DNA of 64,000 nt from Coprothermobacterota bacterium (GTDB taxonomy: Bacteria; Coprothermobacterota; HKB111): the NCBI GenBank assembly GCA_037440465.1, contig JBBIUB010000001.1, positions 96,001 to 160,000 of the forward strand, written 5' to 3'. Positions 49,018-64,000 of this stretch are shown in pieces. The position numbers were made by a program, and so were the translations under genes. The notes beneath the pieces were generated by a model, which was not told the DNA's origin, did not search any database, and saw nothing but the letters and a program-made list of their open reading frames with translations. Every line of letters starts with the position of its first letter. Positions within the stretch are counted from its first letter, which is position 1.

Positions 49018-49944
49018 CTAAAGTAAAAGAGCCAGGATGGCTTTCTGAGCGTGCAGCCTATTTTCAGCTTGGTCAAAAACCACTGATTGAGGTCCATCCA
49101 TTACCTCGTTGGTTATCTCTTCTCCTCTGTGTGCGGGTAGGCAGTGTAACACAACAGCTTCAGGAGAAGCAAAGTTTAGAAGTGAAGAATTAACTTGATA
49201 AGGTATAAAGACCTTCTTCCTCTCTATAGCCTCCTCTTCTTGCCCCATACTGGCCCAAACATCTGAATATACTACATCTGCTTTCTCTATAGCTTCTTCA
49301 GGATTGGAAACTACCTTGATGGTGCCACCACTCTTCAAAGCTTCCGCCTGAGCCATTTCTACGACAAAAGCTGATGGTTCATAGTAAGGAGGCGAAGCTA
49401 CTCTTATATGCATTCCCACCTTGGCTCCACCAAGAAGAAGGGCGTTACACACATTGTTTCCATCACCTATATAAGCCATGGTCACCCCCTTAAGACTTCC
49501 CTTCTTCTCCTTGACAGTCATAAGATCTCCAAGAACCTGGCAGGGGTGATATAGGTCAGATAAACCATTTATCACTGGTATAGAAGCATATTCAGCTAAC
49601 TCCTCAAGAGTCTTATGAGAATAGACTCTTGCCATTATACCGTTTAAATAACGAGAAAGTGTGCGAGCTGTGTCTGCAATGGTTTCTCCTCTTTTAAGCT
49701 GAAGATCTTGAGCTCCGAGATAAAGGGCATGGCCTCCAAGCTCATACATAGCAACTTCAAAAGAGACCCTGGTGCGAGTTGAGGGTTTCTCAAAAATCAT
49801 ACCGAGAGTCTTACCCTGCAAAGAATTATGAATTATATTGCTTCTCTTCATCCTTTTCAACATAAACCCTGTTTCTAAAATTTCTTCTATCTCTTCTAAG
49901 GATAAATCTCCCAGGCTTAATAGGTCTCTTCCCCTAAGATTCAT
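49018..49944 (-). CDS. arcB: Ornithine carbamoyltransferase (probably catabolic)
   Basis: STRTR, HPCQ, DVWASMG, HCLP. Confidence 0.93.
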   Translation of the reverse strand: MNLRGRDLLSLGDLSLEEIEEILETGFMLKRMKRSNIIHNSLQGKTLGMIFEKPSTRTRVSFEVAMYELGGHALYLGAQDLQLKRGETIADTARTLSRYLNGIMARVYSHKTLEELAEYASIPVINGLSDLYHPCQVLGDLMTVKEKKGSLKGVTMAYIGDGNNVCNALLLGGAKVGMHIRVASPPYYEPSAFVVEMAQAEALKSGGTIKVVSNPEEAIEKADVVYSDVWASMGQEEEAIERKKVFIPYQVNSSLLNFASPEAVVLHCLPAHRGEEITNEVMDGPQSVVFDQAENRLHAQKAILALLL

Positions 49945-51287
49945 GCTTCCACCTCCTTTTCCTTGATTATATGAGGAATTCTCTCTTTAAGAATGGAGCT
50001 CAGGGTAGGCTCCCCAATCTCTTGAAGCTCGTAAGTCACACGGACCGCTGGCTTATTTAGTTTTACTAGCCTTCGTAAATCTATGGGTGTAGCTACAATT
50101 ACCAAATCAGCTGGAATTTGATTAAGGGTCTCTTCCATCTCCTTTATCTGGTTCTCGCTATAACCCATAGCTGGTAGAACATCTTCAGTTTGAGTATAGC
50201 GGGTAAAGGTACCTTTAATGGTTCCTACTGCATAAGGTTTTGGGCTAATAATTTCAGATGCCCCATATTTCAGAGCTGCAACATAGCCAGCGCCATACGC
50301 CATCTCTCCATGAGTTAAAGTAGGACCATCTTCAACTATCACTACTTTCTTTCCTCTTATCTTCCCCCCTTCCTCTACATATATAGGAGAAGCAGCTTCA
50401 ACTATAATTGCCCGGGGATTAAACTTACGGGCACTAACCCTTACCTTATTCACATTATCAAGAGAAGCTGTATCAAGCTTATTTATAACTAAAACATCGG
50501 CTGATCTCAGATTGGTCTCACCTGGGTGATAACCAATCTCATGACTGGCCCTCAGCGGATCAAGAACCACTATACTTAAATCACTCTTATAGAATGAAAA
50601 GTCATTATTTCCACCATCCCACACAACCACATCTGCTTCTCGCTGAGCAGATTCCAGAATATCGCCGTAGTCAACACCAGCATATACAATCATTCCCTTA
50701 ATAATATGAGGTTCATACTCTTCCATCTCTTCTATGGTGCATTTGTGCTTTTCAAGGTCAGCAATGGTCTCAAATCTCTGTACTCTCTGGATGGCAAGGT
50801 CACCATAGGGCATGGGGTGCCTGACAACAACCACTTTGAGTCCCATCTCCTTTAAAATGCCGGCAACCCTTCTGGTAGTCTGACTCTTACCTGCCCCAGT
50901 TCTAATAGCCCCTACAGAAACTACCGGTTTTCTTGCTGCGATCTGGGTGCTACCTGGCCCTAAAAGCCAGAAATCTGCTCCTGAAGCAAGAGTAAGAGAT
51001 GCCTTGTGCATAACATATTCGTGAGAAACATCGCTATAAGAAAAAACTATTACTTTTACACCCAGTTCTTTAATTAAACGGGTAAGCTCTTCTTCAGCAT
51101 ATATAGGAATACCCATTGGATATAATTTACCAGACAGAGATGAAGGATACTTCCTGCCCTCTATATCGGGAATCTGAGTGGCTGTAAAAGCAATAACTTC
51201 ATACTTCTCATTATCTCTGAAAAAAACATTGAAATTATGAAAATCACGTCCAGCTGCTCCCATAATGAGCACTTTGATTCTTCCCAT
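49941..51287 (-). CDS. arcE: Arginine synthetase ArcE-like P-loop protein (often annotated GTPase / cDPG synthase-like)
   Basis: MGAAGRDFHNFN, RTGAGKS, RHPMPYG, WDGGNND, EDGPTLTHG; coupled to OTC and carbamate kinase. Confidence 0.75.
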   Translation of the reverse strand: MGRIKVLIMGAAGRDFHNFNVFFRDNEKYEVIAFTATQIPDIEGRKYPSSLSGKLYPMGIPIYAEEELTRLIKELGVKVIVFSYSDVSHEYVMHKASLTLASGADFWLLGPGSTQIAARKPVVSVGAIRTGAGKSQTTRRVAGILKEMGLKVVVVRHPMPYGDLAIQRVQRFETIADLEKHKCTIEEMEEYEPHIIKGMIVYAGVDYGDILESAQREADVVVWDGGNNDFSFYKSDLSIVVLDPLRASHEIGYHPGETNLRSADVLVINKLDTASLDNVNKVRVSARKFNPRAIIVEAASPIYVEEGGKIRGKKVVIVEDGPTLTHGEMAYGAGYVAALKYGASEIISPKPYAVGTIKGTFTRYTQTEDVLPAMGYSENQIKEMEETLNQIPADLVIVATPIDLRRLVKLNKPAVRVTYELQEIGEPTLSSILKERIPHIIKEKEVEA

Positions 51288-51709: not shown

Positions 51710-52164
51710 GCCTCTTCCCTCTCTTTTACAATATCAATTAACTTCGGTTCCTGTGCAGAATGAGGATGCAAAGGACCCGAATAAACTTTAAGCCTTTTAT
51801 ACATCTTCCTACCAAGTGTTGTTTTTGGAAGCATAAGGCGCACTGCTTTTTCTAAAACCCTCTCAGGGAAATTTTCTAATACCTTGGAAAGAGGGGTCGC
51901 TTTTAAACCCCCCTGGTAACCAGAATAGTGGTAGTATTTCTTTTGAGCCAACTTCTTTCCGGTTATTTTTATATCTTTAGCATTGATAACTATAACAAAA
52001 CTACCCATATCAACATGCGGTGTAAACTCTACTTTATTCTTTCCCTGAAGATAGCGACTAATTTGAGATGCCAGCCTTCCAAGAATCTTACCCTTAGCAT
52101 CAACAAGATGCCAGTCTCTTTTTACCTCTTTAATATTTATAAACCTTGTTTTAGTAGTTTCCAT
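51706..52164 (-). CDS. rplM: 50S ribosomal protein L13
   Basis: VDA....LGRLAS, FTPHVD, HYSGYQGGLK, HPHSAQ.P. Confidence 0.96.
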   Translation of the reverse strand: METTKTRFINIKEVKRDWHLVDAKGKILGRLASQISRYLQGKNKVEFTPHVDMGSFVIVINAKDIKITGKKLAQKKYYHYSGYQGGLKATPLSKVLENFPERVLEKAVRLMLPKTTLGRKMYKRLKVYSGPLHPHSAQEPKLIDIVKEREEA

Positions 52165-52206
52165 TTCTTAAATGGTCTTATGCCTCCTTAAAAATAACTA
52201 AAAAAC

Positions 52207-52235
52207 ATTCTAAAACAAACCCCTCTCTTTGTCAA
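52207..52235 (-). promoter_or_regulatory. Sigma70 promoter for rplM-rpsI
   Basis: TTGACA (52235-52230) - 17 nt - TAGAAT (52212-52207). Confidence 0.75.
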
Positions 52236-52375
52236 GCACGGTGTTTGTTCTCAAATAATTATTAAATATAATATTTATCATAATAATTATACACTATCTT
52301 CTCATTAAGGGTACATATTTTACTTACCTATATCGGATAGGATATCTATTCCCGTCAAACTGAATTTATTTTATG

Positions 52376-52474
52376 AGACCCTGAAACAATCCTGAATAGA
52401 TTTTAGGACAGGGCCCAAGGTGACCCCCCACCCCACTCTCCCTCTACGAAGGGGAGGATTAAGGAGGGGGTGAC
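52376..52474. repeat. REP-like nested palindrome plus adjacent C-rich/G-rich hairpin
   Basis: AGACCCTGAAAC..TCCTGAA...TTTAGGA...CAAGGTGAC, then CCCCC..CTCCCTCT-acga-AGGGGAG..GGGGG. Confidence 0.5.
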
Positions 52475-52551
52475 AAAACTGAAATGCTTTTCAGCTTTTT
52501 CAAATAAAAACTCCTCTTTTGAATTTTACTTAATATGGATTATAAAAAGTC

Positions 52552-52580
52552 TTGACATTTATAAATATTATTATTATAAT
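52552..52580 (+). promoter_or_regulatory. Perfect consensus sigma70 promoter for KAS III-like operon
   Basis: TTGACA (52552) - 17 nt - TATAAT (52575). Confidence 0.85.
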
Positions 52581-52614
52581 GTGAAAGGTGAATCAGGTAT
52601 AAAAAGGAGTGCTT

Positions 52615-53613
52615 ATGGAAAACAAAAGGACGTCGAGAATTATAGGAACAGGTCTACATGTACCAGAAAAGGTTTTAACAAACCAATATTTTAATGATTT
52701 CTTTAAGGAAGATGTTGGTTCATGGCTTGAAGGTGTTGTAGGTCAAAAGGAAAGGCATGTCCTTGGAGATAATGAATCGGTGGTAGATATTGCTGTTCCT
52801 GCAGCTATTATGGCTATTGAAGAAGGTAAAATCAAGCCCGAAGACATAGACATTATCATTGTTTCTTCTGATACTCATGAATACATTTCACCACCAACAT
52901 CCTTTGTTGTACAAAATAAATTGGGTGCTAAAAATGCAGCAGTATTTGATTTAAACGCCTCATGCGCCTCATTTGTAACAGCTCTTGTAACAGCAGATAA
53001 ATGGCTTAAAGATGAGGAAAGTTTTAAATATGTATTAGTTATTGGTGAATATGGAATGACAAAATATCTAAACTGGAATGATAAATACACTGCTACCCTC
53101 TTTGCTGATGGTGCAGGAGCTTTTCTTCTTAAAGCAGAAAATGATGAAGAAGAAGGAGTAATAGACTCCGTATTTATAGCTGATGGAAGTTATTATGATT
53201 ATATTGGGGTCTTCGGTGGAGGAACAAGGTTCCCCTTAAGAGAAGAAACTATTCAACAGGGTTTACATCAATTGAGAATAATGAAAAGGTATCCACCCGA
53301 CATTAACTCCAGGAACTGGCCAATTCTTATAGAAAATCTCCTCCAAAAAGTTGGAAAAGAAGTTACAGACATAGACATGATTTTCTTTACTCAAATTAAT
53401 CTTGGTACAATTAAAGAGGTAATGACTAATCTAAATATTCCAATAGAGAAAACCCACTGGATAATGGATAAATACGGCTACACCGGTTCTGCTTGTATAC
53501 CTATGGCTGTTCATGATGCCCGATTAAATAATAAATTAAAAAAAGGAGATTTCGTGGTAATGATAGCCTCTGGAGCAGGCTTTGCTATGGGAGCTATAGC
53601 ACTAAAATGGTAA
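52615..53613 (+). CDS. KAS III (FabH)-fold protein 1, non-canonical active site
   Basis: NASCASF, LFADGAGA; TQIN in place of HQAN, YGYTGSA in place of YGNT.AA; ATG at 52615 after AAGGAG. Confidence 0.85.
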   Translation: MENKRTSRIIGTGLHVPEKVLTNQYFNDFFKEDVGSWLEGVVGQKERHVLGDNESVVDIAVPAAIMAIEEGKIKPEDIDIIIVSSDTHEYISPPTSFVVQNKLGAKNAAVFDLNASCASFVTALVTADKWLKDEESFKYVLVIGEYGMTKYLNWNDKYTATLFADGAGAFLLKAENDEEEGVIDSVFIADGSYYDYIGVFGGGTRFPLREETIQQGLHQLRIMKRYPPDINSRNWPILIENLLQKVGKEVTDIDMIFFTQINLGTIKEVMTNLNIPIEKTHWIMDKYGYTGSACIPMAVHDARLNNKLKKGDFVVMIASGAGFAMGAIALKW

Positions 53614-53658
53614 TTTATATTAATCAAAACCAGTTTAGTAGAGGAGATTTTAAATAAT

Positions 53659-54642
53659 ATGCGGTCGGTAAAAATAAGTTCTACTGGAATATATTCACCT
53701 TCCAGAACTATGTTCACTGAAGAAATAAATGAATTAGTTGGTGAGGATATAACTTACTGGGCGGTAGAGAAGATGGGCTTAAAAGTAAAAAAAATCTCAG
53801 AACCCGATGAAGCAGCCTCAGATTTAGCAGTAAAAGCAAGTATTGAAGCTATTAATAAAGCAGGAATAAAACCAGAAGACCTTGATCTTCTGATAGTAGC
53901 AACAGATACCCCTGACTATTTTTCCCCTGCTACATCTTCAATTGTTCAATGTAAATTAGGTGCTAAAAATGCAGGTACTTTTGATGTCAATTGTGCTTGC
54001 GCTGGCTTGGTTACGGCATTGGATATAGCTACTAAATATATCCTTACGGATAGTTCTTTTAAAAAGGTTCTTATAGTTGGTACTTACGCTATGACTAAGT
54101 TTCTCAATTGGAAAGATAAAGTAACAGCTCCTATTTTTTCAGACGGCGCAGGAGCAATTATACTGGAAGAAACAGATAATGGTCCTGGATTCCTGACCTC
54201 TAAACTAATTGCAGATGGTTGTTTCTATGACTATTTAGGTGTTTACCTCGGCTCAGGAGCAGTACCCACACCTGAATACATAGAAAAAGGGTTACATTTC
54301 GTCAGATATAACAAAAGATATCCTGATGTAAATTCAGAAAATTGGCCAAGCTTGGTGCGAGATACGCTCAAAAAGGTAAATCTTACTTCTCAAGATATTG
54401 ACATGATAATCTTCACTCAAGTCCGTAAATTTACCATAGAAGAAGTAATGGAAAAACTCAATCTCCCTCTTTCTAAAACATACATGGTTATGCACAAATA
54501 TGGGTACACAGGCTCCGCCTGTATCCCTATGGCTTTGAATGATGCCCTTGAAGAAAGGAAAATAAAAAAGGGAGACCTTGTAGTTTTTTGCTCATCAGGA
54601 GGTGGGTATGCGATGGCAGCATACGCCATGAGATGGGTTTAA
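53659..54642 (+). CDS. KAS III (FabH)-fold protein 2, non-canonical active site
   Basis: NCACAG, IFSDGAGA; TQVR and YGYTGSA. Confidence 0.85.
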   Translation: MRSVKISSTGIYSPSRTMFTEEINELVGEDITYWAVEKMGLKVKKISEPDEAASDLAVKASIEAINKAGIKPEDLDLLIVATDTPDYFSPATSSIVQCKLGAKNAGTFDVNCACAGLVTALDIATKYILTDSSFKKVLIVGTYAMTKFLNWKDKVTAPIFSDGAGAIILEETDNGPGFLTSKLIADGCFYDYLGVYLGSGAVPTPEYIEKGLHFVRYNKRYPDVNSENWPSLVRDTLKKVNLTSQDIDMIIFTQVRKFTIEEVMEKLNLPLSKTYMVMHKYGYTGSACIPMALNDALEERKIKKGDLVVFCSSGGGYAMAAYAMRWV

Positions 54643-54662
54643 AAATAAAAGGAGGTACGACC

Positions 54663-55430
54663 ATGCCATATTTACCATTTAAGAACGGAAATTTATACTA
54701 TGAAGAATCAGGAGAAGGCGATAGGAAACTCCTCTTTGTGCATGGAAACATCGCTTCTCTTAATTACTGGAGAAAATTAAGACCTTATTTACCAACTAAG
54801 ATAAAGTGTTTTTTCCTCGACCTTCCCGGATATGGTAAATCTGATAATATTTCGCCATATAACCTTGAATCCTTTGCTGATTCAATTATCTATTTTGCTG
54901 AAAAATTAGAGCTCAAAACCTTTACCTATGTTGGACATTCCACCGGGGGGCTTATAGGTATAATATCTACCTTAAAAGGTGCTCCAATAGCAAAACTTAT
55001 CCTTATATCTACCGTTCCTGCAAGTGGATATCCTCTTACAGAAGATTCCAGAGCTGCTTTTACCTTTCTTATGACTAATAGGGACTTCCTCGAGCAGACC
55101 TTAAGGAACCATGTATTTCCTAGCATCTCAGATGAAAACTTAGCACTTGAACTTATTCAAGATGCAGTAAGAGCCATTCCCCAGGGTTACACCGATGTTC
55201 CAGAAAGCCTGGGTGAAACAAATGTCCTTAAGGAGGCTAAAGAACTAAAGATTCCCATCCTTTTTATCCATGGGACAGAAGATAAAGTCATTCCACTTGA
55301 TTGGGCAAGAGAAACTTTTGACACAATAAATGGGAAGGTAATTATTCTGAAAGGTGCCGGTCACACACCTCAGATTTCTTTCCCACAGGAAGTAGCAACA
55401 CATATAGTGAACTTTGTAAAGGAGAATTAA
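54663..55430 (+). CDS. Alpha/beta hydrolase (esterase)
   Basis: HGN oxyanion, GHSTGG, GTEDKV, GAGH; ATG at 54663 after GGAGG. Confidence 0.88.
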   Translation: MPYLPFKNGNLYYEESGEGDRKLLFVHGNIASLNYWRKLRPYLPTKIKCFFLDLPGYGKSDNISPYNLESFADSIIYFAEKLELKTFTYVGHSTGGLIGIISTLKGAPIAKLILISTVPASGYPLTEDSRAAFTFLMTNRDFLEQTLRNHVFPSISDENLALELIQDAVRAIPQGYTDVPESLGETNVLKEAKELKIPILFIHGTEDKVIPLDWARETFDTINGKVIILKGAGHTPQISFPQEVATHIVNFVKEN

Positions 55431-55432
55431 AT

Positions 55433-56176
55433 ATGGGAAAGTTTGAAAACAAAATAAGTATTGTTACAGGTGGTGGAAGAGGAATTGGTAAAGAGATATG
55501 CCTATCTTTTGCTACAGAAGGAGCTAAGATAGTCATCTGGGATATAGACCAAGAAAGAGCACAGGAGGTTAAAGGTCGGTGTGAAGCACTGGGCATAGAA
55601 GTCCTGGTTCAACGGGTTGATGTAACCAATAGAAACCAGATTAAAAATGCAGTTGATGAAGTTATTGGCAAGTGGGGTAGAATAGATATTCTTGTTAATA
55701 ATGCAGGCATAACCCGAGATGCTTATCTTTCAAAAATGTCAGAAGAAGATTTCGATATGGTTATAAACATTAATCTTAAGGGCGTATTTAACTGTACTCA
55801 ATTAGTTGTTCCTCATATGATGACCCAAAACTACGGAAATATAATATGTATCTCCTCTATAGTAGGTAGAGATGGAAATATCGGGCAAACCAACTATGCT
55901 GCTTCCAAAGCTGGAGTAATAGGTATGGTCAAGACCTGGGGTAAAGAACTCGCCAGGTTTAACATTAGAGCCAATGCTATTGCTCCTGGCTTTATCGCTA
56001 CAGAAATGACCCAAAAAGTTCCAGAGAAGGTCATTGAGATGGTAAAGGAAAAAACACCCTTGAAACGCCTGGGAACACCGCAAGAAATAGGAAGACTGGC
56101 TGTTTTCCTCGCCTCTGAAGAATCCTCCTTCATCACCGGCCAGGTCATAAGTGTTGATGGAGGTCTTGTCCTCTAA
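55433..56176 (+). CDS. SDR, FabG / acetoacetyl-CoA reductase family
   Basis: TGGGRGIG, NNAGITRD, GNIGQTNYAASK, APGFI. Confidence 0.88.
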   Translation: MGKFENKISIVTGGGRGIGKEICLSFATEGAKIVIWDIDQERAQEVKGRCEALGIEVLVQRVDVTNRNQIKNAVDEVIGKWGRIDILVNNAGITRDAYLSKMSEEDFDMVININLKGVFNCTQLVVPHMMTQNYGNIICISSIVGRDGNIGQTNYAASKAGVIGMVKTWGKELARFNIRANAIAPGFIATEMTQKVPEKVIEMVKEKTPLKRLGTPQEIGRLAVFLASEESSFITGQVISVDGGLVL

Positions 56177-56190
56177 TTAAGGGTGATGAG

Positions 56191-57414
56191 TTGAGTAAAA
56201 GAGAACCAAGAACTTCCAAGGGAATTAGAGCAAAAGATCTGCTCATTGAAAAAGCTGAAGAATTATTTTACCAGAAAGGCTATTTTCAGACTTCTATCCC
56301 AGCCATAGTTAAAGAAGCTCGTCTAAGTGTACCTTCTTTTTATCAATATTTTAAAAATAAGGAAGATGTTCTACTGGAGATTGTCTCAGTCCTATCTAAA
56401 GAGTTCCTGGGTGAATTACGGAAATCCCTGGAAAATACTGATAATACAGAAATTGCCATTCATAATTTCTATAAAACATTTCTTACCTTCCTTTATAACA
56501 ACAAGAAGAAGTATAAAATCTTCAGAGAAACAGAGTTTGCAGGCTACTCTTTCGTGAAGGATTTCTATATCCACCTAACAGACTTAGTAAAGGAATTTCT
56601 TTATAAAGATATTCCTTCAGACAAATTAAAAGATGACTTATCATATACCCTGATTGGTTCTGCATATTTCGTTGCTTTAAAAAAGATTGACTGGGAGAGC
56701 TCCTCAAACATAGATTTTCTTGCTGATAATCTTATTCAATTCTTTCTAAAAGGCATTGATAAAAAAAGAAACTATGTTTTTTCACCTGCCTGGAAGGAAA
56801 GAATAGAAATAACCTCTCAAGAACAAGTACTAACAAGGGGAGAGCGTACTCAGAAAGATATCCTAAAAGCTGCAGAAAAGCTTTTTGGAAATAAAGGTTT
56901 CTGGGAAACTCATATCTCTGATATAACTAACGATATTGATATTGGTCAAGGTACTTTCTACCTATATTTTGACTCTAAGATTGAACTCTTGAGCAAATTA
57001 GTAAAAGAAATTAATAGAGGGTTAAGATATACGGTTTACCAGTATATAAAAGAAGCCAGTGATAGGCGAGAGATAGAAGTTAAAGGTTTAGTAGCTTTCT
57101 CAGATTACATAATAGAACACAAAAACGCTTACCGTGTGGTACGAGAAGCTGAATTCGTTGATAGGGAAATAGGTAAATGGTATTACAACCGGGTTGTAGA
57201 GCCTTACGCTATCAAACTTAAAGAAGCCATTGAAAAAGGAGAAGTTTCCAGTATTGACCCTGAGATATTAGCACTGGCTATTATAGGAGTTGGTCATTTT
57301 CTGGGATTACGTTGGGTAGTCTGGAACAACGATAATAATAAAGGAATACCCTCTGAATCTCTTTACAATACTCTAAAGATTATTTTATGGGGAGCAAAAA
57401 ATGAAAAGAATTGA
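56191..57414 (+). CDS. Tandem (double) TetR-family regulator
   Basis: Two HTH modules: AEELF..KGY...FYQYFKNK and AEKLF..KGF...FYLYFDSK, each followed by RE.EF. Confidence 0.85.
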   Translation: MSKREPRTSKGIRAKDLLIEKAEELFYQKGYFQTSIPAIVKEARLSVPSFYQYFKNKEDVLLEIVSVLSKEFLGELRKSLENTDNTEIAIHNFYKTFLTFLYNNKKKYKIFRETEFAGYSFVKDFYIHLTDLVKEFLYKDIPSDKLKDDLSYTLIGSAYFVALKKIDWESSSNIDFLADNLIQFFLKGIDKKRNYVFSPAWKERIEITSQEQVLTRGERTQKDILKAAEKLFGNKGFWETHISDITNDIDIGQGTFYLYFDSKIELLSKLVKEINRGLRYTVYQYIKEASDRREIEVKGLVAFSDYIIEHKNAYRVVREAEFVDREIGKWYYNRVVEPYAIKLKEAIEKGEVSSIDPEILALAIIGVGHFLGLRWVVWNNDNNKGIPSESLYNTLKIILWGAKNEKN

Positions 57415-58684
57415 TATAGATGATCTTTTGAGGATTATCCCACCTAAAGCAAGTATCGTTGTAGGAATGGTTGCTGCTCAACCAAAAGAATTTCTTTTTA
57501 ACCTTCACAGGAAACAAGATGTAGAACTTATTACAGTGACTTTAGCTCTACCACTTGAGGCATATGAATTTTTTTCAAATCCTCTATATAAGGACAAATT
57601 TCTACTGGAAGCCTGGTATCATGGTCCTTTTGCCAGGAAGGCGTATGAGTTAGGAACTGTCACTTTTGTCCCCAATCAACTTAACAAAGCAGGTATTGAT
57701 AGACAAGAAGTAAATCCGCCAGATGTTATAGTTCTTACTTCGCCACCCATTGATCAATATGGATACTTTAACCTTTCTCTCTCTGTAACTTATGAAAAAT
57801 ACCTGGCTCTTCAAAAGAAAAAAGGAGCCATGGTTGTCATTGAAATCAATAAAAATCTTCCAAGAGTACTGGGAGATACATTTCTTCCCCATAGTTATGT
57901 TGATTACTATTATGAGACGGACATGCCCTTATTTTCACTTGAAGAACAGAAAACCCAGAGAGAGGAAGAAAAAATTGGCCATTTAATTTCAGAGTTAGTT
58001 GAAGATGGCTCAACTATTCAATTGGGAATAGGAGGCATTCCAAATACAGTTGCCTATCTTTTAGAAAAAAAAGAAGACCTCGGTGTTCATACCGAGATGA
58101 TAACAGAAAGTATGGCTTATCTTTACAGAAAGGGGGTGATTAACGGAAGAAAGAAGAGTTTTTATCCTGCTACTATGGTAGGAACTTTTATTTATGGTTC
58201 AGCAAAGCTCTACGAATTTGCTCATGAAAACCCTGCTGTCACACTTTTACCCGGACATATAACCAATGATCCATACGTTATAGGGCAACAACACAAGATG
58301 GTTTCAATAAATACAGCTCTTATGATAGATTTAAATGGTCAGGTATGCTCAGAAAGTATTGGTCTTGAGCAGATAACAGGTACAGGTGGTCAGGTAAATT
58401 TCCACACAGGTGCTCAGTTCTCTCGTGGAGGAAAAGGGATTTTAGCCATAAAATCAACAGCTCGAAATGGTGAATTGTCCTCTATAGTACCTGTACTACC
58501 TCTCGGTTCAACAGTGACCCTATCTCGTAACGATGTAGATTACATAGTAACTGAATATGGTGTTGGAAGGTTAAAAGGTAGAAGTGTAAAGGAAAGAGTA
58601 GAAATATTAATTTCTATCGCTCACCCGAAGTTCAAAGATTACCTTCGGGAAGAAGCAAAAAGACTAAAAATCTATAATTGGTAG
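57401..58684 (+). CDS. Acetyl-CoA hydrolase / 4-hydroxybutyrate CoA-transferase family
   Basis: TIQLGIGGIP, GVHTEM, GTGGQ, VTEYG, IAHP.F. Confidence 0.9.
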   Translation: MKRIDIDDLLRIIPPKASIVVGMVAAQPKEFLFNLHRKQDVELITVTLALPLEAYEFFSNPLYKDKFLLEAWYHGPFARKAYELGTVTFVPNQLNKAGIDRQEVNPPDVIVLTSPPIDQYGYFNLSLSVTYEKYLALQKKKGAMVVIEINKNLPRVLGDTFLPHSYVDYYYETDMPLFSLEEQKTQREEEKIGHLISELVEDGSTIQLGIGGIPNTVAYLLEKKEDLGVHTEMITESMAYLYRKGVINGRKKSFYPATMVGTFIYGSAKLYEFAHENPAVTLLPGHITNDPYVIGQQHKMVSINTALMIDLNGQVCSESIGLEQITGTGGQVNFHTGAQFSRGGKGILAIKSTARNGELSSIVPVLPLGSTVTLSRNDVDYIVTEYGVGRLKGRSVKERVEILISIAHPKFKDYLREEAKRLKIYNW

Positions 58685-58693
58685 GAGGAGAAT

Positions 58694-60259
58694 GTGAAAA
58701 AAATTATCAGTATGTTATTAGTGTTAAGTATTTTTGCATGGGGCGCTCCTCAATCGATCGCTCAAACTGAAGGAGATGGTTTGCTTTTGGTTTTGCAGGT
58801 AGGATCAACATCTTACTTTAAAAACGGAACTAAACTTGAAATTGATGTAAAACCAGAAATTCTTAAAGGAAGAACCTTCGTACCTATTAGATTTGTGAGT
58901 GAAGCCATGGGAGCTAAGGTTACATGGGTTGAAGCTACTAAAACTGTTATAGTATCCACTGATAAAACCACTATTACCTTAAAAGTGGGCAGCATAGAAG
59001 CTCTAATAGATGGCAAGAAACATACTTTAGAAGCCGCTCCTTACATTAAAACCGGCAGAACTATGGCACCAGTAAGGTTAGTTAGCGAAGGATTAGGTCT
59101 TAATGTTTACTGGGAAGGTAAAGCCAAGCAGATTTTCCTTAGAGGAAAACCAATGGTAACAGTTCCTGGAATTTCTGACAATGAGATTAAAATTGGTTCA
59201 TTTATTGCCCTCACAGGAGTTCTGGCTTTTATAGGAGTACCTTACTATCAGGGGTTTCAATCATACCTCAATATGGTGAATGACGAGGGCGGAATCAATG
59301 GAAGAAAAATTAATCTTATTGTGGAAGATGACCGTTTTGACCCTGCAAGAACCGTAATTGGAGTTAGAAAACTTGTTGAAGAAGATAAAGTCTTCGCTAT
59401 TGTTGGTGGACTTGGAACTCCAGGTAGCCTTGCAGTTATGGATTATCTGAATAAAGGCAAGGTTCCTTTTGTATATCAAGCATCTGGTGTCTCTGTACTA
59501 TCTATTCCTGCTAAGCGTTATATATTCTCTGTTCAGCCAAATTACTATAATGAAGGTCAGATATTCGTAAGATACATTGTAGGAGAATTGAAACAAAAAA
59601 AGATTGCTGTACTTTACCAGAATGATGACGCTGGTAGAGAAGGCTTATTCGGAGTTAATACTGGAATAAGGAGATTTGGAGGAAACCTTGTTGCTGACCT
59701 CCCCTTCCCTGGTACAGAAACAGACTTTACTCCATATCTTTTAAGAGTTAAAGCCAGCGGCGCAGAATCCCTGATAGTCTATACTCTCAGTGCAGGCATT
59801 GGTGGTACGATCGTTAAAGCGGCAAAGGCTTTGGGGCTTACTCAAAAAATATTCCTGCCATATCCACATGCTGGAATTATCGCTGCGGCTGGTGATGCCT
59901 CAGAAGATGTGTATGTAACTGGTTGGGTTGATTTTTCAGATGCAAAAGATCCAGGTGTCATTAAATTTTGGGAAACTTGGCTTAAGTACTATCCTAAAGG
60001 TGACCCCCTACTTTTTGCTTATGCAGTAGCTGGTTTTGTTGCTGGTGAAGTATTTGTGGAATCACTAAAAAGACTTGGACCTTATCCAAGCCGTGAAGCA
60101 CTAATCTGGGCGCTTGAAGCCTTTAAGGGATGGGATGGTTATCTTGTTAAAGACCTTAGCTACGGACCTAAAGAAAGATCAGGTAAATACTCCATGTTCT
60201 TTATGCAGGTTCAGAAAAAGGAGCTTAAGAAAGTTAGCAGCTGGATTTCTGTTTTCTAA
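58694..60259 (+). CDS. Stalk (copper amine oxidase N-terminal-like) domain fused to Liv-type substrate-binding protein
   Basis: GRTFVPIRFVSEAMGA and GRTMAPVRLVSEGLG repeats, then GISDNEIKIG...NDEGGINGRKI. Confidence 0.85.
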   Translation: MKKIISMLLVLSIFAWGAPQSIAQTEGDGLLLVLQVGSTSYFKNGTKLEIDVKPEILKGRTFVPIRFVSEAMGAKVTWVEATKTVIVSTDKTTITLKVGSIEALIDGKKHTLEAAPYIKTGRTMAPVRLVSEGLGLNVYWEGKAKQIFLRGKPMVTVPGISDNEIKIGSFIALTGVLAFIGVPYYQGFQSYLNMVNDEGGINGRKINLIVEDDRFDPARTVIGVRKLVEEDKVFAIVGGLGTPGSLAVMDYLNKGKVPFVYQASGVSVLSIPAKRYIFSVQPNYYNEGQIFVRYIVGELKQKKIAVLYQNDDAGREGLFGVNTGIRRFGGNLVADLPFPGTETDFTPYLLRVKASGAESLIVYTLSAGIGGTIVKAAKALGLTQKIFLPYPHAGIIAAAGDASEDVYVTGWVDFSDAKDPGVIKFWETWLKYYPKGDPLLFAYAVAGFVAGEVFVESLKRLGPYPSREALIWALEAFKGWDGYLVKDLSYGPKERSGKYSMFFMQVQKKELKKVSSWISVF

Positions 60260-60275
60260 ATAAAGAACCTGTAAC

Positions 60276-60304
60276 GAGGTGGGGGTAAAACCAACCCCCA
60301 CCTC
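60276..60304 (+). terminator. Hairpin after SBP gene (probably a stabiliser; no U-tract)
   Basis: GAGGTGGGGGT-aaaacca-ACCCCCACCTC. Confidence 0.6.
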
Positions 60305-60329
60305 AATTATCTAAGAAAGGGGAGAAGAG

Positions 60330-61070
60330 TTGTTAAAAGTAGAAAACCTTACAGTCAGGTTTGGTGGATTGGTAGCAATAAATAAACTTTCTTTTGAGGT
60401 AAAACAAGGCTCTATTCATGGATTGATAGGCCCCAATGGTGCTGGAAAAACAACCGTATTTAATAGTATATTTAAGATTGTTCCTTATGATGGAACAATT
60501 AATTTCAAAGGTAATGACATCAGAAAATATCCAACTCATACTCTACCAGCAATGGGGATTACCAGAACATTTCAGAACCTGAGTATTTTTTCTTCAATGA
60601 CTGTGAAAGAAAATATTTTAGTAGGATTACATGCCAAAACTAGTAGTCTTCTCCTTAAAGACCTAATCGGTCTATATGTAGATACAGAAAAAGAACTTCA
60701 GTACATAAGTAAATCTTTAGGTGTCACACTATTACTACCTACCTATGCAGCTTTCCTTCCCTTCGGGACACTCAAGATGGTGGAGTTGGCAAGAGCTCTG
60801 ATAAGCGGACCTGAGCTATTGTTGCTGGATGAACCTGGAGCAGGGTTAAACCTTACAGAAAAAGAGAAGCTTAAAGGCTTGATAAAAGAGGTCAAAAATA
60901 AGGGAATCACTGTTTTGATTGTAGAACATGATATGGGTATAATCATGGATGTTTCGGACCACATAACCGTTATGAATTTCGGAGAAAAGATAGCTGAAGG
61001 ATCTGCCGATGAAATATCTCACAATCAGAAAGTCATTGAAGCTTATTTGGGGGAGGAAATCTATGCTTAA
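60330..61070 (+). CDS. Liv-type ABC ATPase (LivG-like)
   Basis: FGGL, GPNGAGKT, RTFQN, DEPGAG. Confidence 0.88.
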   Translation: MLKVENLTVRFGGLVAINKLSFEVKQGSIHGLIGPNGAGKTTVFNSIFKIVPYDGTINFKGNDIRKYPTHTLPAMGITRTFQNLSIFSSMTVKENILVGLHAKTSSLLLKDLIGLYVDTEKELQYISKSLGVTLLLPTYAAFLPFGTLKMVELARALISGPELLLLDEPGAGLNLTEKEKLKGLIKEVKNKGITVLIVEHDMGIIMDVSDHITVMNFGEKIAEGSADEISHNQKVIEAYLGEEIYA

Positions 61071-61764
61071 AATTGAAAAATTATCATCAGGTTATGGACC
61101 TCTTGAAGCCATTCATGGAATTAGTTTAACCGTAGAAAAAGGAGAGATCGTCGCTGTTCTGGGCTCTAATGGAGCAGGTAAAACCACTCTCCTCAAGACC
61201 ATTTCAGGATTAATCAGACTGACAAAAGGCCACGTTTCCTTTGAAGGAACCATTTTGAACAATCTCGAACCCCCAAATATTGTTAAATTGGGTATTATAC
61301 ATATCCCTGAAGGTAGGCGCATTTTTCCTGGATTGACAGTCAGAGAAAACCTAACTCTTGCTGGGTATTACCTCAAAAAAAATGAGCTTGATAATAGAAT
61401 CAAATTTGCTTACTCAATTTTTCCTCTTTTAAAAGAAAGAGAAAAACAATCAGGAGGAACATTAAGTGGAGGAGAACAACAGATGCTTGCTCTGGCAAGG
61501 GGTTTGATACCAAATCCAAAATTACTTCTCATGGATGAACCATCTCTTGGTCTTGCTCCGAAACTTGTTTCTTTAATTTATCAAACGCTGGAGAAACTGA
61601 AAAAAAATGGAATCACTATTCTTCTTGTAGAACAGAATGCAAAAAAAGCCTTAGAGGTTTCAGATAGAGCTTATGTTCTTACTACTGGTTACCTTACCCT
61701 GGAAGGCACATCCAGAGGGCTTATGTCCAATGAAAATGTCAAGAAACTTTATTTAGGGAGGTAG
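61063..61764 (+). CDS. Liv-type ABC ATPase (LivF-like)
   Basis: GSNGAGKT, PEGRR, LSGGEQQM; ATG at 61063 after GGAGG. Confidence 0.88.
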   Translation: MLKIEKLSSGYGPLEAIHGISLTVEKGEIVAVLGSNGAGKTTLLKTISGLIRLTKGHVSFEGTILNNLEPPNIVKLGIIHIPEGRRIFPGLTVRENLTLAGYYLKKNELDNRIKFAYSIFPLLKEREKQSGGTLSGGEQQMLALARGLIPNPKLLLMDEPSLGLAPKLVSLIYQTLEKLKKNGITILLVEQNAKKALEVSDRAYVLTTGYLTLEGTSRGLMSNENVKKLYLGR

Positions 61765-61765
61765 A

Positions 61766-62638
61766 ATGTTTGATACACTATTAAACTTGACAGCAAGAGG
61801 ACTCTCTACAGGCGCAATATACAGCCTTATCGCCATGGGAATTGTGCTTATTTTCCAGACCACCAGTGTGATGAATTTTGCTCAAGGAAATGCAGGCATG
61901 TTTATCACTTACCTGGCTTTCTTCCTCTTAGCTTTAAAAGTCCCTTTTCCTTTAGTTATAATATTAGCTTTGTTATTTGGAGCTCTGTTCGGTGGATTAA
62001 CCGAAAGATTTTTGATGAGGAGAGTTAGAGAAAGGTCACATGTAGGACTTCTCATGATTACACTTGGTCTCGCGCTCATTTTCGAAGGTTTGGCTGCTTC
62101 TATCTTTGGAACATTTCCCCTCAACTTCCCTCCTATTTTAACCGGGCCTCCCGTGCATGTAGGTCCAATAATCTTAAGCAAACAAGATATCATCGTTAAT
62201 TTATTATCATTGGCATTGTTTACATTGCTATTCCTGGTTCTTTATAAAACTAAAATTGGGATAGGAGCAAGGAGTATTGCTGAAGATGAATACGGTGCTA
62301 GAGTTTTGGGAATACCTGTTTTTAATATCTACATCTTTATCTGGGCATTGGGCTTTGCTTTACCAGGTTTAGCAGGTATTCTGGTAGTACCAAGATTCTC
62401 TCTCGAGCCTCACTTTATGGTGCCAATACAGATAAAAGCCTTTACAGCAGCGGTTTTTGGAGGGATGAACTCTGTTCAGGGAGCCATTGTTGGCGGTCTT
62501 CTTCTTGGTGTTTTAGAAAATATCGTTGCTTTCTATTACCCTATCCTTAAAGAAAGTTTTTCTTTGATTTTGGTAGTAATTGTGCTTTTAATTTTTCCCA
62601 CTGGACTATTTGGTAAAAGATCTCAGAGGAGGTTTTGA
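61766..62638 (+). CDS. Liv-type ABC permease (LivH-like)
   Basis: YSLIAMG, NFAQG, KAFTAAVFGG. Confidence 0.88.
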   Translation: MFDTLLNLTARGLSTGAIYSLIAMGIVLIFQTTSVMNFAQGNAGMFITYLAFFLLALKVPFPLVIILALLFGALFGGLTERFLMRRVRERSHVGLLMITLGLALIFEGLAASIFGTFPLNFPPILTGPPVHVGPIILSKQDIIVNLLSLALFTLLFLVLYKTKIGIGARSIAEDEYGARVLGIPVFNIYIFIWALGFALPGLAGILVVPRFSLEPHFMVPIQIKAFTAAVFGGMNSVQGAIVGGLLLGVLENIVAFYYPILKESFSLILVVIVLLIFPTGLFGKRSQRRF

Positions 62639-63585
62639 TGAAAAAAACGACCTTTTTAAGTATTGCTTTAATAATTCTTGCGCTGTCTTTGCCTTTACCA
62701 TTTTTATACATGCAAAAACCTTCTATTGTTGGCTATTTTAACATGGTAATACTTTTCGCTATTGGTACTCAAGGCCTTAATTTACTTTTGGGATACGCAG
62801 GTCAAGTATCTTTAGGCCATGCGGCTTTCATGGCTATAGGAGGGTACATATCTGCTATCTTAGTTATGAGTTATAATGTTAATAGCCTTTTTGCCATTGT
62901 GATTGCTACAGCTTTTGCTGGTTTATGTGGTCTCCTGGTAGGTTTTCCTTCCCTGAGACTATCCGGATTTTATTTAGCCATAGCAACCATGGCTCTTGGT
63001 AGTGCCACTACTGACCTGATAAAAAGACTAAGCATTACAGGTGGAGACCATGGCTTAAGAAGCATCTCTCCACTTAAGATATTAAATTTTGAATTTTACT
63101 CTGAATTTTCCAAATACTATCTATTCTTATTCATGATGGTGACAATATTTTTACTTGTTAAAAACCTTATTAATAGTAGAAGCGGAAGAGCTCTAAGAGC
63201 AATAAGAGATGCAGAACTGACTGCTGAATCTGTAGGAATAAATGTAGCTTATTATAAACTTGTAGCTTTTGTCTTATCATCAATGATTGCAGGTTTAAGC
63301 GGAGCTTTATATGCTCATTCAGTTTCTTATCTACACCCCAATACTTTTGGGTTAGGTTTCTCTATCGAATTCCTGGCAATGGCTATAGTTGGAGGATTAG
63401 GAACAATCTGGGGTCCTCTTTTAGGGGCATCTTTCTGGGTGCTTCTACCCAGAATCATTGGACCACGATTAGAATACTTATCTACAGTAGTATTTGGTAT
63501 AGCAGTAATACTGAGTGTAATGTTTCTACCATATGGTTTGAGTGAGATTATCTATCGTTTAGAGAAAAAAATGAAATTAAGATAA
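62638..63585 (+). CDS. Liv-type ABC permease (LivM-like)
   Basis: GQVSLGH, LRLSGFYLAIAT, GRALRAIRD. Confidence 0.88.
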   Translation: MKKTTFLSIALIILALSLPLPFLYMQKPSIVGYFNMVILFAIGTQGLNLLLGYAGQVSLGHAAFMAIGGYISAILVMSYNVNSLFAIVIATAFAGLCGLLVGFPSLRLSGFYLAIATMALGSATTDLIKRLSITGGDHGLRSISPLKILNFEFYSEFSKYYLFLFMMVTIFLLVKNLINSRSGRALRAIRDAELTAESVGINVAYYKLVAFVLSSMIAGLSGALYAHSVSYLHPNTFGLGFSIEFLAMAIVGGLGTIWGPLLGASFWVLLPRIIGPRLEYLSTVVFGIAVILSVMFLPYGLSEIIYRLEKKMKLR

Positions 63586-64000
63586 AATTGAAAACTCTTC
63601 CCTTATTTCTAATGATAATTCAGCCAGGAGCTTAAGAGCCCTGGCTGAACCTTCTACAGACATAGACGCCAGGCCACAAGAAGGGGTTATAAGACTCTGC
63701 TTTACAACCTGTTTATAAGGAATGCCAATCTCCACGAAGGGTGCAACCGCTTTTTTAAGAAGTTCTTTTAGGCTATATATCGATTCTTTAGCCAGTATTT
63801 CCTCGTCATTAGGAATAATACCCCAGGCAATAATCCCTCCACGCTCAAAGAAAGTTTTTACTTCTTTAGTGTAAAGACCCAGGGACTCAGAATAGTTATA
63901 AGCATCAAAGCTCAAGATATCAATATCAGTGTTTAAGAGTAGTGCCCAGTCGGTATTACCACAACAGTGAATTCCCTTAAGGCCTTGAATTCCCTTAAGA
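63577..64000 (-). CDS. MetE-like (cobalamin-independent methionine synthase catalytic-domain-like) protein, 3' part
   Basis: Frame is open to the window end: GIHCCGNTDW...SFDAY...AWGIIP...ITPSCGL. Confidence 0.7.
   Translation of the reverse strand, partial: LKGIQGLKGIHCCGNTDWALLLNTDIDILSFDAYNYSESLGLYTKEVKTFFERGGIIAWGIIPNDEEILAKESIYSLKELLKKAVAPFVEIGIPYKQVVKQSLITPSCGLASMSVEGSARALKLLAELSLEIREEFSILS

Follow-up and report, generated by a model that had tools for sequence, protein, structure and literature searches.

What reaction is carried out by a protein that has the fold and the nucleophilic cysteine of ketoacyl-acyl carrier protein synthase III (KAS III), while a threonine and a tyrosine stand where FabH has its catalytic histidine and asparagine? 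The question is raised twice over by a 64,000-nucleotide stretch of the genome of a Coprothermobacterota bacterium (GTDB lineage HKB111; GCA_037440465.1, contig JBBIUB010000001.1, positions 96,001 to 160,000 of the forward strand), referred to below as the window. Two such genes, here called KA (52615-53613, + strand, 332 amino acids) and KB (53659-54642, + strand, 327 amino acids), lie 45 bp apart at the start of an operon. We assign both to a widespread branch of KAS III proteins that appears from its residues to have left fatty-acid initiation, and we tentatively propose for them a non-decarboxylating reaction on substrates bound to coenzyme A (CoA).

Active-site residues and the comparison with FabH

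KA and KB are 49% identical (162/328), and each matches the Pfam domains ACP_syn_III and ACP_syn_III_C with scores of 80-92 bits. The ATG of KA lies 5 nt downstream of AAAGGAG, which makes the alternative GTG at 52609 in the list of open reading frames (ORFs) an unlikely start. An AlphaFold2 model of KA, built with 56 homologs as input, reached a mean pLDDT (predicted local distance difference test) of 94.2 and a pTM (predicted template modeling score) of 0.93; its closest structural matches in Foldseek are FabH, BioZ and PqsD (TMq 0.84-0.92 and 24-31% identity among the matches listed). BioZ (6kue) and PqsD (3h76) are CoA-using KAS III relatives that share this fold. Aligned residue by residue to solved FabHs (8vd9, 2ebd, 1zow), KA places NASCAS on the active-site Cys, FTQIN on pHQAN and GYTGSAC on GNTSAAS, and the motifs of KB are NCACAG, FTQVR and GYTGSAC. 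The nucleophilic Cys is thus retained in both proteins, and in each the His of FabH has given way to Thr and its Asn to Tyr. The first-pass annotation had read these motifs as a kept Cys, TQIN or TQVR for HQAN and GYTGSAC for GNTxAA, and both the alignment to solved FabHs and a codon-level reading show that this was exact. Together with an Asp and a second Cys discussed below, they make up five signature residues, all of them observed in KA (D86, C117, T259, Y289 and C294) as well as in KB (D83, C114, T253, Y283 and C288).

In FabH of E. coli, His244 and Asn274 are required for malonyl decarboxylation, Arg249 is the residue at which ACP docks, and Phe87 closes the pocket. KA has Gly at the Arg249 column. 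Database names for these proteins are confined to FabH or the ketoacyl-ACP synthase III family, and a protein atlas gave nothing beyond generic KAS III cluster names. The scores nevertheless stay below both NCBIfam cut-offs for FabH, with 227.1 for KA and 238 for KB against 249 (NF006829), and 205.6 and 220.6, respectively, against 292.1 (TIGR00747). The source genome (G000; 1.28 Mb in 35 contigs, 94.5% complete) also encodes a canonical FabH with the motifs NAGCSGF, HQANNR and GNTSAAS on another contig (C13:34476-35450), and its FabK, PlsY, FabD, FabG, ACP and FabF genes all lie on contig C12. Since a canonical FabH and a full set of type II fatty-acid synthesis (FAS II) genes are present elsewhere, KA and KB are dispensable for fatty-acid initiation. 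The operon itself, at 52.6-63.6 kb, contains no fab gene apart from that of a FabG-like short-chain dehydrogenase/reductase (SDR); as had been remarked in the first-pass annotation, neither an ACP nor a FabD gene is found there, both being on another contig of the same genome.

Could KA and KB still be ordinary FabH isozymes with odd residues that start fatty-acid synthesis, or decaying copies of such enzymes? Their top named database matches are FabH, but four observations make this very improbable: the FabH cut-offs are missed by both proteins, the clade to which they belong lacks the catalytic His and Asn throughout, Arg is mostly gone from the column of the ACP-docking residue, and the genome has a separate canonical FabH. 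Decay, for its part, is ruled out by a signature that is invariant over many phyla. Judged by their sequences, KA and KB are not fatty-acid initiation enzymes, and the same four observations support the earlier suggestion that they do not decarboxylate.

The Cys/Thr/Tyr clade and its two paralogs

Searching 5.8 billion proteins through a word index returned 2305 matches, and all of the best 120, one of them KA itself, have Cys/Thr/Tyr at the three catalytic columns, as does KB; over the clade sequences compared, the count is 122/122. Thirteen residues, D86, D112, C117, Y146, D165, N231, W235, T259, Q260, M284, Y289, T290 and C294, are shared by 56/56 aligned members across phyla. When 1.84 billion representatives (50% clustering) were searched exhaustively with HMMER, 12692 matches were obtained at E <=0.001, and the best 150 were sorted into 21 with Cys/Thr/Tyr, 112 with Cys/His/Asn and 17 fragments or variants. 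The two classes differ well beyond the catalytic columns. Asp occupies position 86 in 16/17 of the Cys/Thr/Tyr representatives that cover the column, where 0/112 of the Cys/His/Asn class have Asp or Glu; Cys294 is present in 21/21 of the former and 2/112 of the latter. The reverse holds for Arg at the column of E. coli Arg249 (3/21 and 82/112), and the Phe87 column carries Ser or Thr in 16/17 of the Cys/Thr/Tyr class and mostly Phe, Met or Leu in the other. Compared with the FabH enzymes (EC 2.3.1.180) of B. subtilis (FabHA, 8vd9), A. aeolicus (2ebd) and E. coli (1hn9), with which it shares the fold, the Pfam domains and the position of the Cys, the clade therefore has Thr for His, Tyr for Asn, an Asp at a new column, an extra invariant Cys after the Tyr and Ser in place of Phe87; it mostly lacks the docking Arg, and its KA and KB genes sit in an uptake operon rather than beside FAS genes.

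Membership of KA and KB in this clade is a direct observation, and a quick maximum-likelihood tree, described below, separates the clade from canonical FabH. From the alignments we conclude that the co-varying set Asp86, Ser92, Cys117, Thr259, Tyr289 and Cys294 (KA numbering) defines a widespread and uncharacterized KAS III branch. Among the bacteria sampled, it is found in Chloroflexota, Acidobacteriota, Desulfobacterota-type lineages, Competibacteraceae, Bipolaricaulota and the present small-genome lineage, and one cultured carrier, with the cluster in locus L057, is Bellilinea caldifistulae. In a full-text literature search, which did not cover subscription journals, neither a KAS III enzyme with Cys/Thr/Tyr nor the gene cluster was found to have been described.

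Two further sets of unusual sequences came to light. Five of the variant representatives (P0136, P0151, P0185, P0186 and P0235) keep Asp or Glu in the combinations D-C-N-Y, D-C-P-Y, E-C-S-Y, D-S-P-Y and D-C-T-W, which may mean that the rewired KAS III enzymes form a larger group than this clade. A second KAS III-like family, which shares about 25% identity with KA and KB and is missing from the source genome, is present in 4/160 of the loci that we fetched around clade members (L012:14451-15458, - strand; L034:13729-14772; L051:83-1102, - strand; L061:5671-6711); it keeps the Cys, with TTEEW for the DTPEY of the clade, KPSG for HQAN and GHIGEQD for GNTSAAS.

How, then, did two copies come to lie side by side? 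The quick tree comprised 63 subsampled rows and carries SH-aLRT (Shimodaira-Hasegawa-like approximate likelihood-ratio test) support only, with long outgroup branches and a thorough search unfinished. KA falls in it beside proteins labelled candidate division WS2 and Cryosericum. The nearest neighbors of KB are its orthologs in genomes G001 and G003, followed, with support of 91, by the single-copy genes of three genomes of the same phylum (G004, G008 and G011) and of locus L072. On this topology KA and KB are anciently diverged paralogs of different subclades, and a recent tandem duplication is rejected, with the reservation that attaches to SH-aLRT values and long outgroup branches. The first-pass annotation had held that identical substitutions in two diverged copies argue for selection rather than decay. 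Selection over decay is borne out by the invariance of the signature over many phyla; the idea that the substitutions arose twice is not, because both proteins descend from an old, widespread Cys/Thr/Tyr family, so that their shared residues were inherited and are not parallel changes.

Tandem copies are rare. We fetched 160 loci, 80 from genome contigs and 80 from metagenomes, of which 159 contain a clade member; the KA-KB pair occurs only in G000, G001 and G003, and 158/159 other loci have a single copy. The one with a second copy is a metagenome locus (L137:199-4527) with the order hydrolase-KAS-SDR-KAS-SDR, in which a KAS-SDR pair has been duplicated as a unit. The possibility that KB is a degenerate copy was also considered. 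Against a family consensus that was built from the best matches of KA, and is hence biased toward it, KA departs at 0/59 conserved positions and KB at 5/60 strongly conserved ones (N23T, R47K, G203S, N262R and H281Y, KA numbering); the single copy of G004 deviates more (9/62), and degeneration of KB is thus not supported.

The pairing of the genes could instead reflect an obligate heterodimer, as the first-pass annotation had considered, with one catalytic and one mainly structural subunit in the manner of PqsBC or LstAB. Adjoining genes, retention of the pair in three genomes and the loss from KB, in this lineage, of the otherwise nearly invariant R47 and H281 are all compatible with such an arrangement. 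However, known KAS III heterodimers have a dead partner that lacks catalytic residues, whereas KA and KB each keep every signature residue, the Asp, Cys, Thr, Tyr and second Cys being intact in both. The KB type moreover occurs as a single copy in G004, G008, G011 and L072, the G004 copy lies even further from the consensus, and in the one other locus with two copies each has its own SDR. An obligate heterodimer is for these reasons quite improbable. It is more probable that KA and KB differ in the acyl groups that they accept than that one of them is an inactive partner.

The operon and its counterparts in other bacteria

From KA onward, 11 genes follow one another on the same strand; they either overlap or are separated by no more than about 70 bp. 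The KB gene is followed by an alpha/beta-hydrolase (54663-55430; Abhydrolase_1, 83.6 bits), a probable esterase with a Ser nucleophile in GHSTG. Its top NCBIfam match is an intracellular short-chain polyhydroxyalkanoate (PHA) depolymerase, at 115 bits under a cut-off of 300, and its top PDB match is a poly(3-hydroxybutyrate) (PHB) depolymerase (8ynv, E 7e-17), limited to the N-terminal half. Next comes the FabG-like classical SDR (55433-56176), a 3-oxoacyl/3-hydroxyacyl oxidoreductase that scores 310.4 bits for TIGR01830, above the 297.75 cut-off. A 407-residue regulator with two TetR_N stretches (56191-57414) has as its top NCBIfam matches the acyl-CoA-sensing FasR and FadR types, below cut-off; this double TetR protein is retained with the cluster in G001, G004, L013, L016, L027 and L072. 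The gene at 57401-58684 encodes a CoA-transferase of the 4-hydroxybutyrate/butyryl-CoA:acetate family (AcetylCoA_hyd_C, 199 bits; E 4e-89 to PDB 3eh7, a 4-hydroxybutyrate CoA-transferase).

The remaining genes specify an ATP-binding cassette (ABC) importer, with a substrate-binding protein (58694-60259), two ATPases (60330-61070 and 61063-61764; ABC_tran) and two permeases (61766-62638 and 62635-63585; BPD_transp_2). In the binding protein a Cu_amine_oxidN1-like domain (residues 44-148) precedes Peripla_BP_6. The orthologs in G001 and G004 are 73% and 58% identical to it over about 522-524 aligned residues, which suggests that they keep this extra domain. Its relatives in the PDB, of the Leu/Ile/Val-type and aromatic-acid-binding kinds (best E 4e-22), are too distant to assign a ligand.

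A sigma-70-type promoter-like site upstream of KA, TTGACA-17 nt-TATAAT (52552-52580, + strand; a consensus match), is the sole 12/12 match within 52100-64000, and a similar site precedes the KA ortholog of G001. An Rfam scan of the spacer upstream of KA gave no match, and among operator-like inverted repeats only weak AT-rich ones were found. Part of this 450-bp spacer (52372-52424), beside a G+C-rich stretch, is 85% identical over 53 nt to C1:164621-164673, and 25 nt of the piece recur on contigs C30 and C9. Farther upstream, between an ornithine carbamoyltransferase gene and rpsI, lies a 448-residue ORF (49941-51287, - strand) with no Pfam match at E <=1e-4.

The same set of genes recurs elsewhere. 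G001 has the identical operon in identical order, and the complete genome G004 has the hydrolase, one KB-type KAS gene, the SDR, all parts of the importer, the double TetR gene and the CoA-transferase; in G004 an AtoB-type thiolase gene starts about 45 bp past the CoA-transferase gene, with equal spacing in G008. For a wider comparison we counted neighbors up to 8 kb away from the KAS gene, using the 70 loci with at least 4 kb of flank on each side. An acid-activating enzyme is present in 50/70, and in 38 of these it lies next to the KAS gene on the same strand; it is an AMP-ligase in 40 loci and a CoA-transferase in 10, and no locus has both. A FabG-like SDR is present in 38/70 (adjacent in 30, its homologs about 50% identical to that of the window). 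Less frequent are an alpha/beta-hydrolase (31/70), a binding protein (25/70), an archaeal-type thiolase and a DUF35 protein (17/70 each) and the double TetR regulator (7/70). With both an acid-activating enzyme and a FabG-like SDR, the window fits the typical neighborhood of the clade.

Two features of these loci bear on what the module does. The AMP-ligase of other loci occupies the place held in the window by the CoA-transferase, and this exchange at one place suggests that the step is simply the conversion of an acid to acyl-CoA. The hydrolases fall into two groups, and the G-x-S-x-G nucleophile motif is found in 18/18 of one (ABH_a) and 21/21 of the other (ABH_b), and the best named matches, none of which reaches its cut-off, are PHB or PHA depolymerases and enol-lactonases. 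Because their nucleophile is Ser, both groups are hydrolases and not PHA synthases, and a PHA-synthase-like role for the larger hydrolase was rejected.

Candidate reactions of KA and KB

The content of the operon and its conservation are observed; the substrate class, the order of the steps and the chemistry are what we infer from them. In the sequence of events that we propose, an organic hydroxy-acid, free or as an ester, would enter through the ABC system, the alpha/beta-hydrolase would release the acid, and the CoA-transferase, or the AMP-ligase in other phyla, would convert it to a CoA thioester. The SDR would interconvert 3-hydroxyacyl-CoA and 3-oxoacyl-CoA. An acyl group of the thioester would then be loaded onto the conserved Cys of KA or KB, as in all thiolase-superfamily enzymes, and malonyl decarboxylation would be absent because the His and Asn are gone. 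Asp86 may serve as general base, and the hydroxyls of the Thr and Tyr may hold a carbonyl or enolate oxygen. Overall, the enzymes would act on the 3-oxoacyl-CoA of the SDR, cleaving or forming a carbon-carbon bond without decarboxylation (retro-Claisen or Claisen type). We thus favor, although with rather less than even confidence, the view that KA and KB are CoA-dependent, ACP-independent, non-decarboxylating acyl-Cys enzymes of this Claisen or retro-Claisen kind, and rank it ahead of acyl transfer between esters and thioesters, which in turn precedes a condensation like that of 3-hydroxy-3-methylglutaryl-CoA (HMG-CoA) synthase or OleA. For the substrate, 3-hydroxybutyrate or a PHA-derived ester is a reasonable guess that leans on the weak matches of the hydrolase.

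The role given to Asp86 comes from a comparison with HMG-CoA synthase, in which a Glu is the catalytic general base. Other genomes supplied three bacterial HMG-CoA synthase genes, one of them above the TIGR01835 cut-off; these were aligned, and their profile was compared with that of the clade (probability 97.85%). IIVSSDTH of KA pairs with cVVGTESg, so that D86 falls on the Glu of GTES, while C117 pairs with the catalytic Cys of KHACYG and Y289 with the Asn of GNVYS; the HMG-CoA synthase His lies in a gapped stretch adjoining T259. From this pairing Asp86 is inferred to lie close to Cys117 in the active site. KA and KB thus share with the bacterial MvaS type (TIGR01835) the thiolase-superfamily fold and an acidic residue 31-32 residues ahead of the Cys. 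They differ in having Asp instead of Glu, in keeping neither the His nor the Asn, in the lack of a mevalonate-pathway context and in scores far under the cut-offs (67-76 bits against 244 for NF003274; 31.6 against 360 for TIGR01835).

The alignment of D86 with the catalytic Glu leads to another reading of the chemistry, in which Asp86 deprotonates the enzyme-bound acyl group and this attacks a ketone or thioester, as in HMG-CoA synthase or OleA. In the 17/70 loci that have a thiolase and a DUF35 protein, such a condensation might run in a complex like the archaeal thiolase/HMG-CoA synthase/DUF35 assembly. The enzyme set of a KAS-like protein, SDR, AMP-ligase and hydrolase, found together in many related loci, also resembles OleABCD. 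We nonetheless consider this condensation improbable, given the unconserved, gapped His, the low HMG-CoA synthase family scores, a genome (94.5% complete) without a DUF35 match, and importers and TetR regulators that suggest catabolism. The AMP-ligase is moreover exchangeable with a CoA-transferase, an enzyme incapable of beta-lactone formation. The exchange, seen in 10/50 loci and in the window, G001 and G004, therefore counts against a beta-lactone synthetase of the Ole type. OleA itself keeps Cys-His-Asn and uses a Glu from its partner subunit. An Ole-type olefin or beta-lactone pathway was rejected on the grounds of this exchange, the FabG-type SDR and the attached importer and TetR genes, features by which KA/KB-type loci differ from OleABCD.

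Several observations weigh against the Claisen or retro-Claisen activity that we favor. A true thiolase stands within related operons, AtoB-type in G004 and G008 and archaeal-type with DUF35 in 17/70 loci, and the source genome has its own next to a 3-oxoacid CoA-transferase on contig 8; because thiolases are already present, a second retro-Claisen enzyme would seem superfluous unless it covered a different range of substrates. In addition, none of the module genes is found in 20/70 loci, and in 17 loci without them (32 proteins compared, 3 from G004) the neighbors are unrelated to each other and have nothing in common. The first-pass annotation had named thiolase-like cleavage as one option. 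A plain thiolase role is weakened by the thiolases just listed; cleavage of a carbon-carbon bond without decarboxylation still lies within the reading that we favor. Degradative and biosynthetic thiolases, whether of the AtoB/PhaA type or the archaeal type with DUF35, resemble KA and KB as we picture them in performing acyl-Cys chemistry on CoA thioesters and in keeping company with an SDR of the 3-hydroxyacyl-CoA dehydrogenase type and an acid-activating enzyme. KA and KB, however, belong to a different branch of the superfamily, have no His/Cys acid-base pair and co-occur with true thiolases in related operons; for Thiolase_N (Pfam cut-off 26.4) KB scores 21.8 bits and KA has no match, and the TIGR01930 score is 25.3 against 240.55. 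No AtoB-type thiolase was found among the 160 fetched loci. In the source genome, a 3-oxoacid CoA-transferase A/B gene pair lies directly upstream of a canonical acetyl-CoA acetyltransferase gene (C8:42365-45029, - strand), forming an acetoacetate-type module unlinked to the window.

If a true thiolase performs the carbon-carbon step in the related operons, the KAS enzyme is left free for another, and the frequent serine esterases (31/70 loci) point to ester bonds. The Cys of KA and KB could then relay acyl groups between oxygen esters and CoA; for example, a hydroxyacyl ester already activated with CoA, such as a dimer or oligomer of 3-hydroxybutyrate, might be split by thiolysis with CoA. 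Thiolysis would give acyl-CoA without a second activation cost, and the reverse esterification is likewise possible. KAS III-like enzymes that make esters by way of an acyl-Cys, such as CerJ, are known, and the top named matches of the hydrolases are PHB or PHA depolymerases. These matches are weak and confined to the generic N-terminal half, however; the esterases could complete the hydrolysis unaided, and the tightest partner of the KAS gene, the SDR adjacent to it in 30/70 loci, points to a 3-oxo or 3-hydroxy group and not to an ester. On balance we regard such carbon-oxygen chemistry as unlikely, while placing it second among the reactions considered. A stronger form of it is more doubtful still. 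In that form the whole clade would use CoA to break, with conservation of energy, the oxygen esters of CoA-activated hydroxyacyl oligomers, a reaction undescribed in the thiolase superfamily. If true, it would mean that each ester bond yields acyl-CoA directly, with no hydrolysis and re-activation; the oligomers could be 3-hydroxybutyrate dimers from bioplastic-type storage polymers, for instance, and the two paralogs could serve different chain positions or lengths.

Whichever reaction applies, names such as FabH or ketoacyl-ACP synthase III in the databases would wrongly place the clade in lipid synthesis, when its members appear to mark a conserved uptake-and-breakdown module across the bacterial phyla sampled. 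Because one carrier, B. caldifistulae, is cultured, the family is open to experiment. Solving the reaction would add an Asp/Cys/Thr/Tyr active-site solution to a very well-studied enzyme superfamily, and might also bring to light how hydroxy-acid esters are used by many uncultured anaerobes and sludge bacteria.

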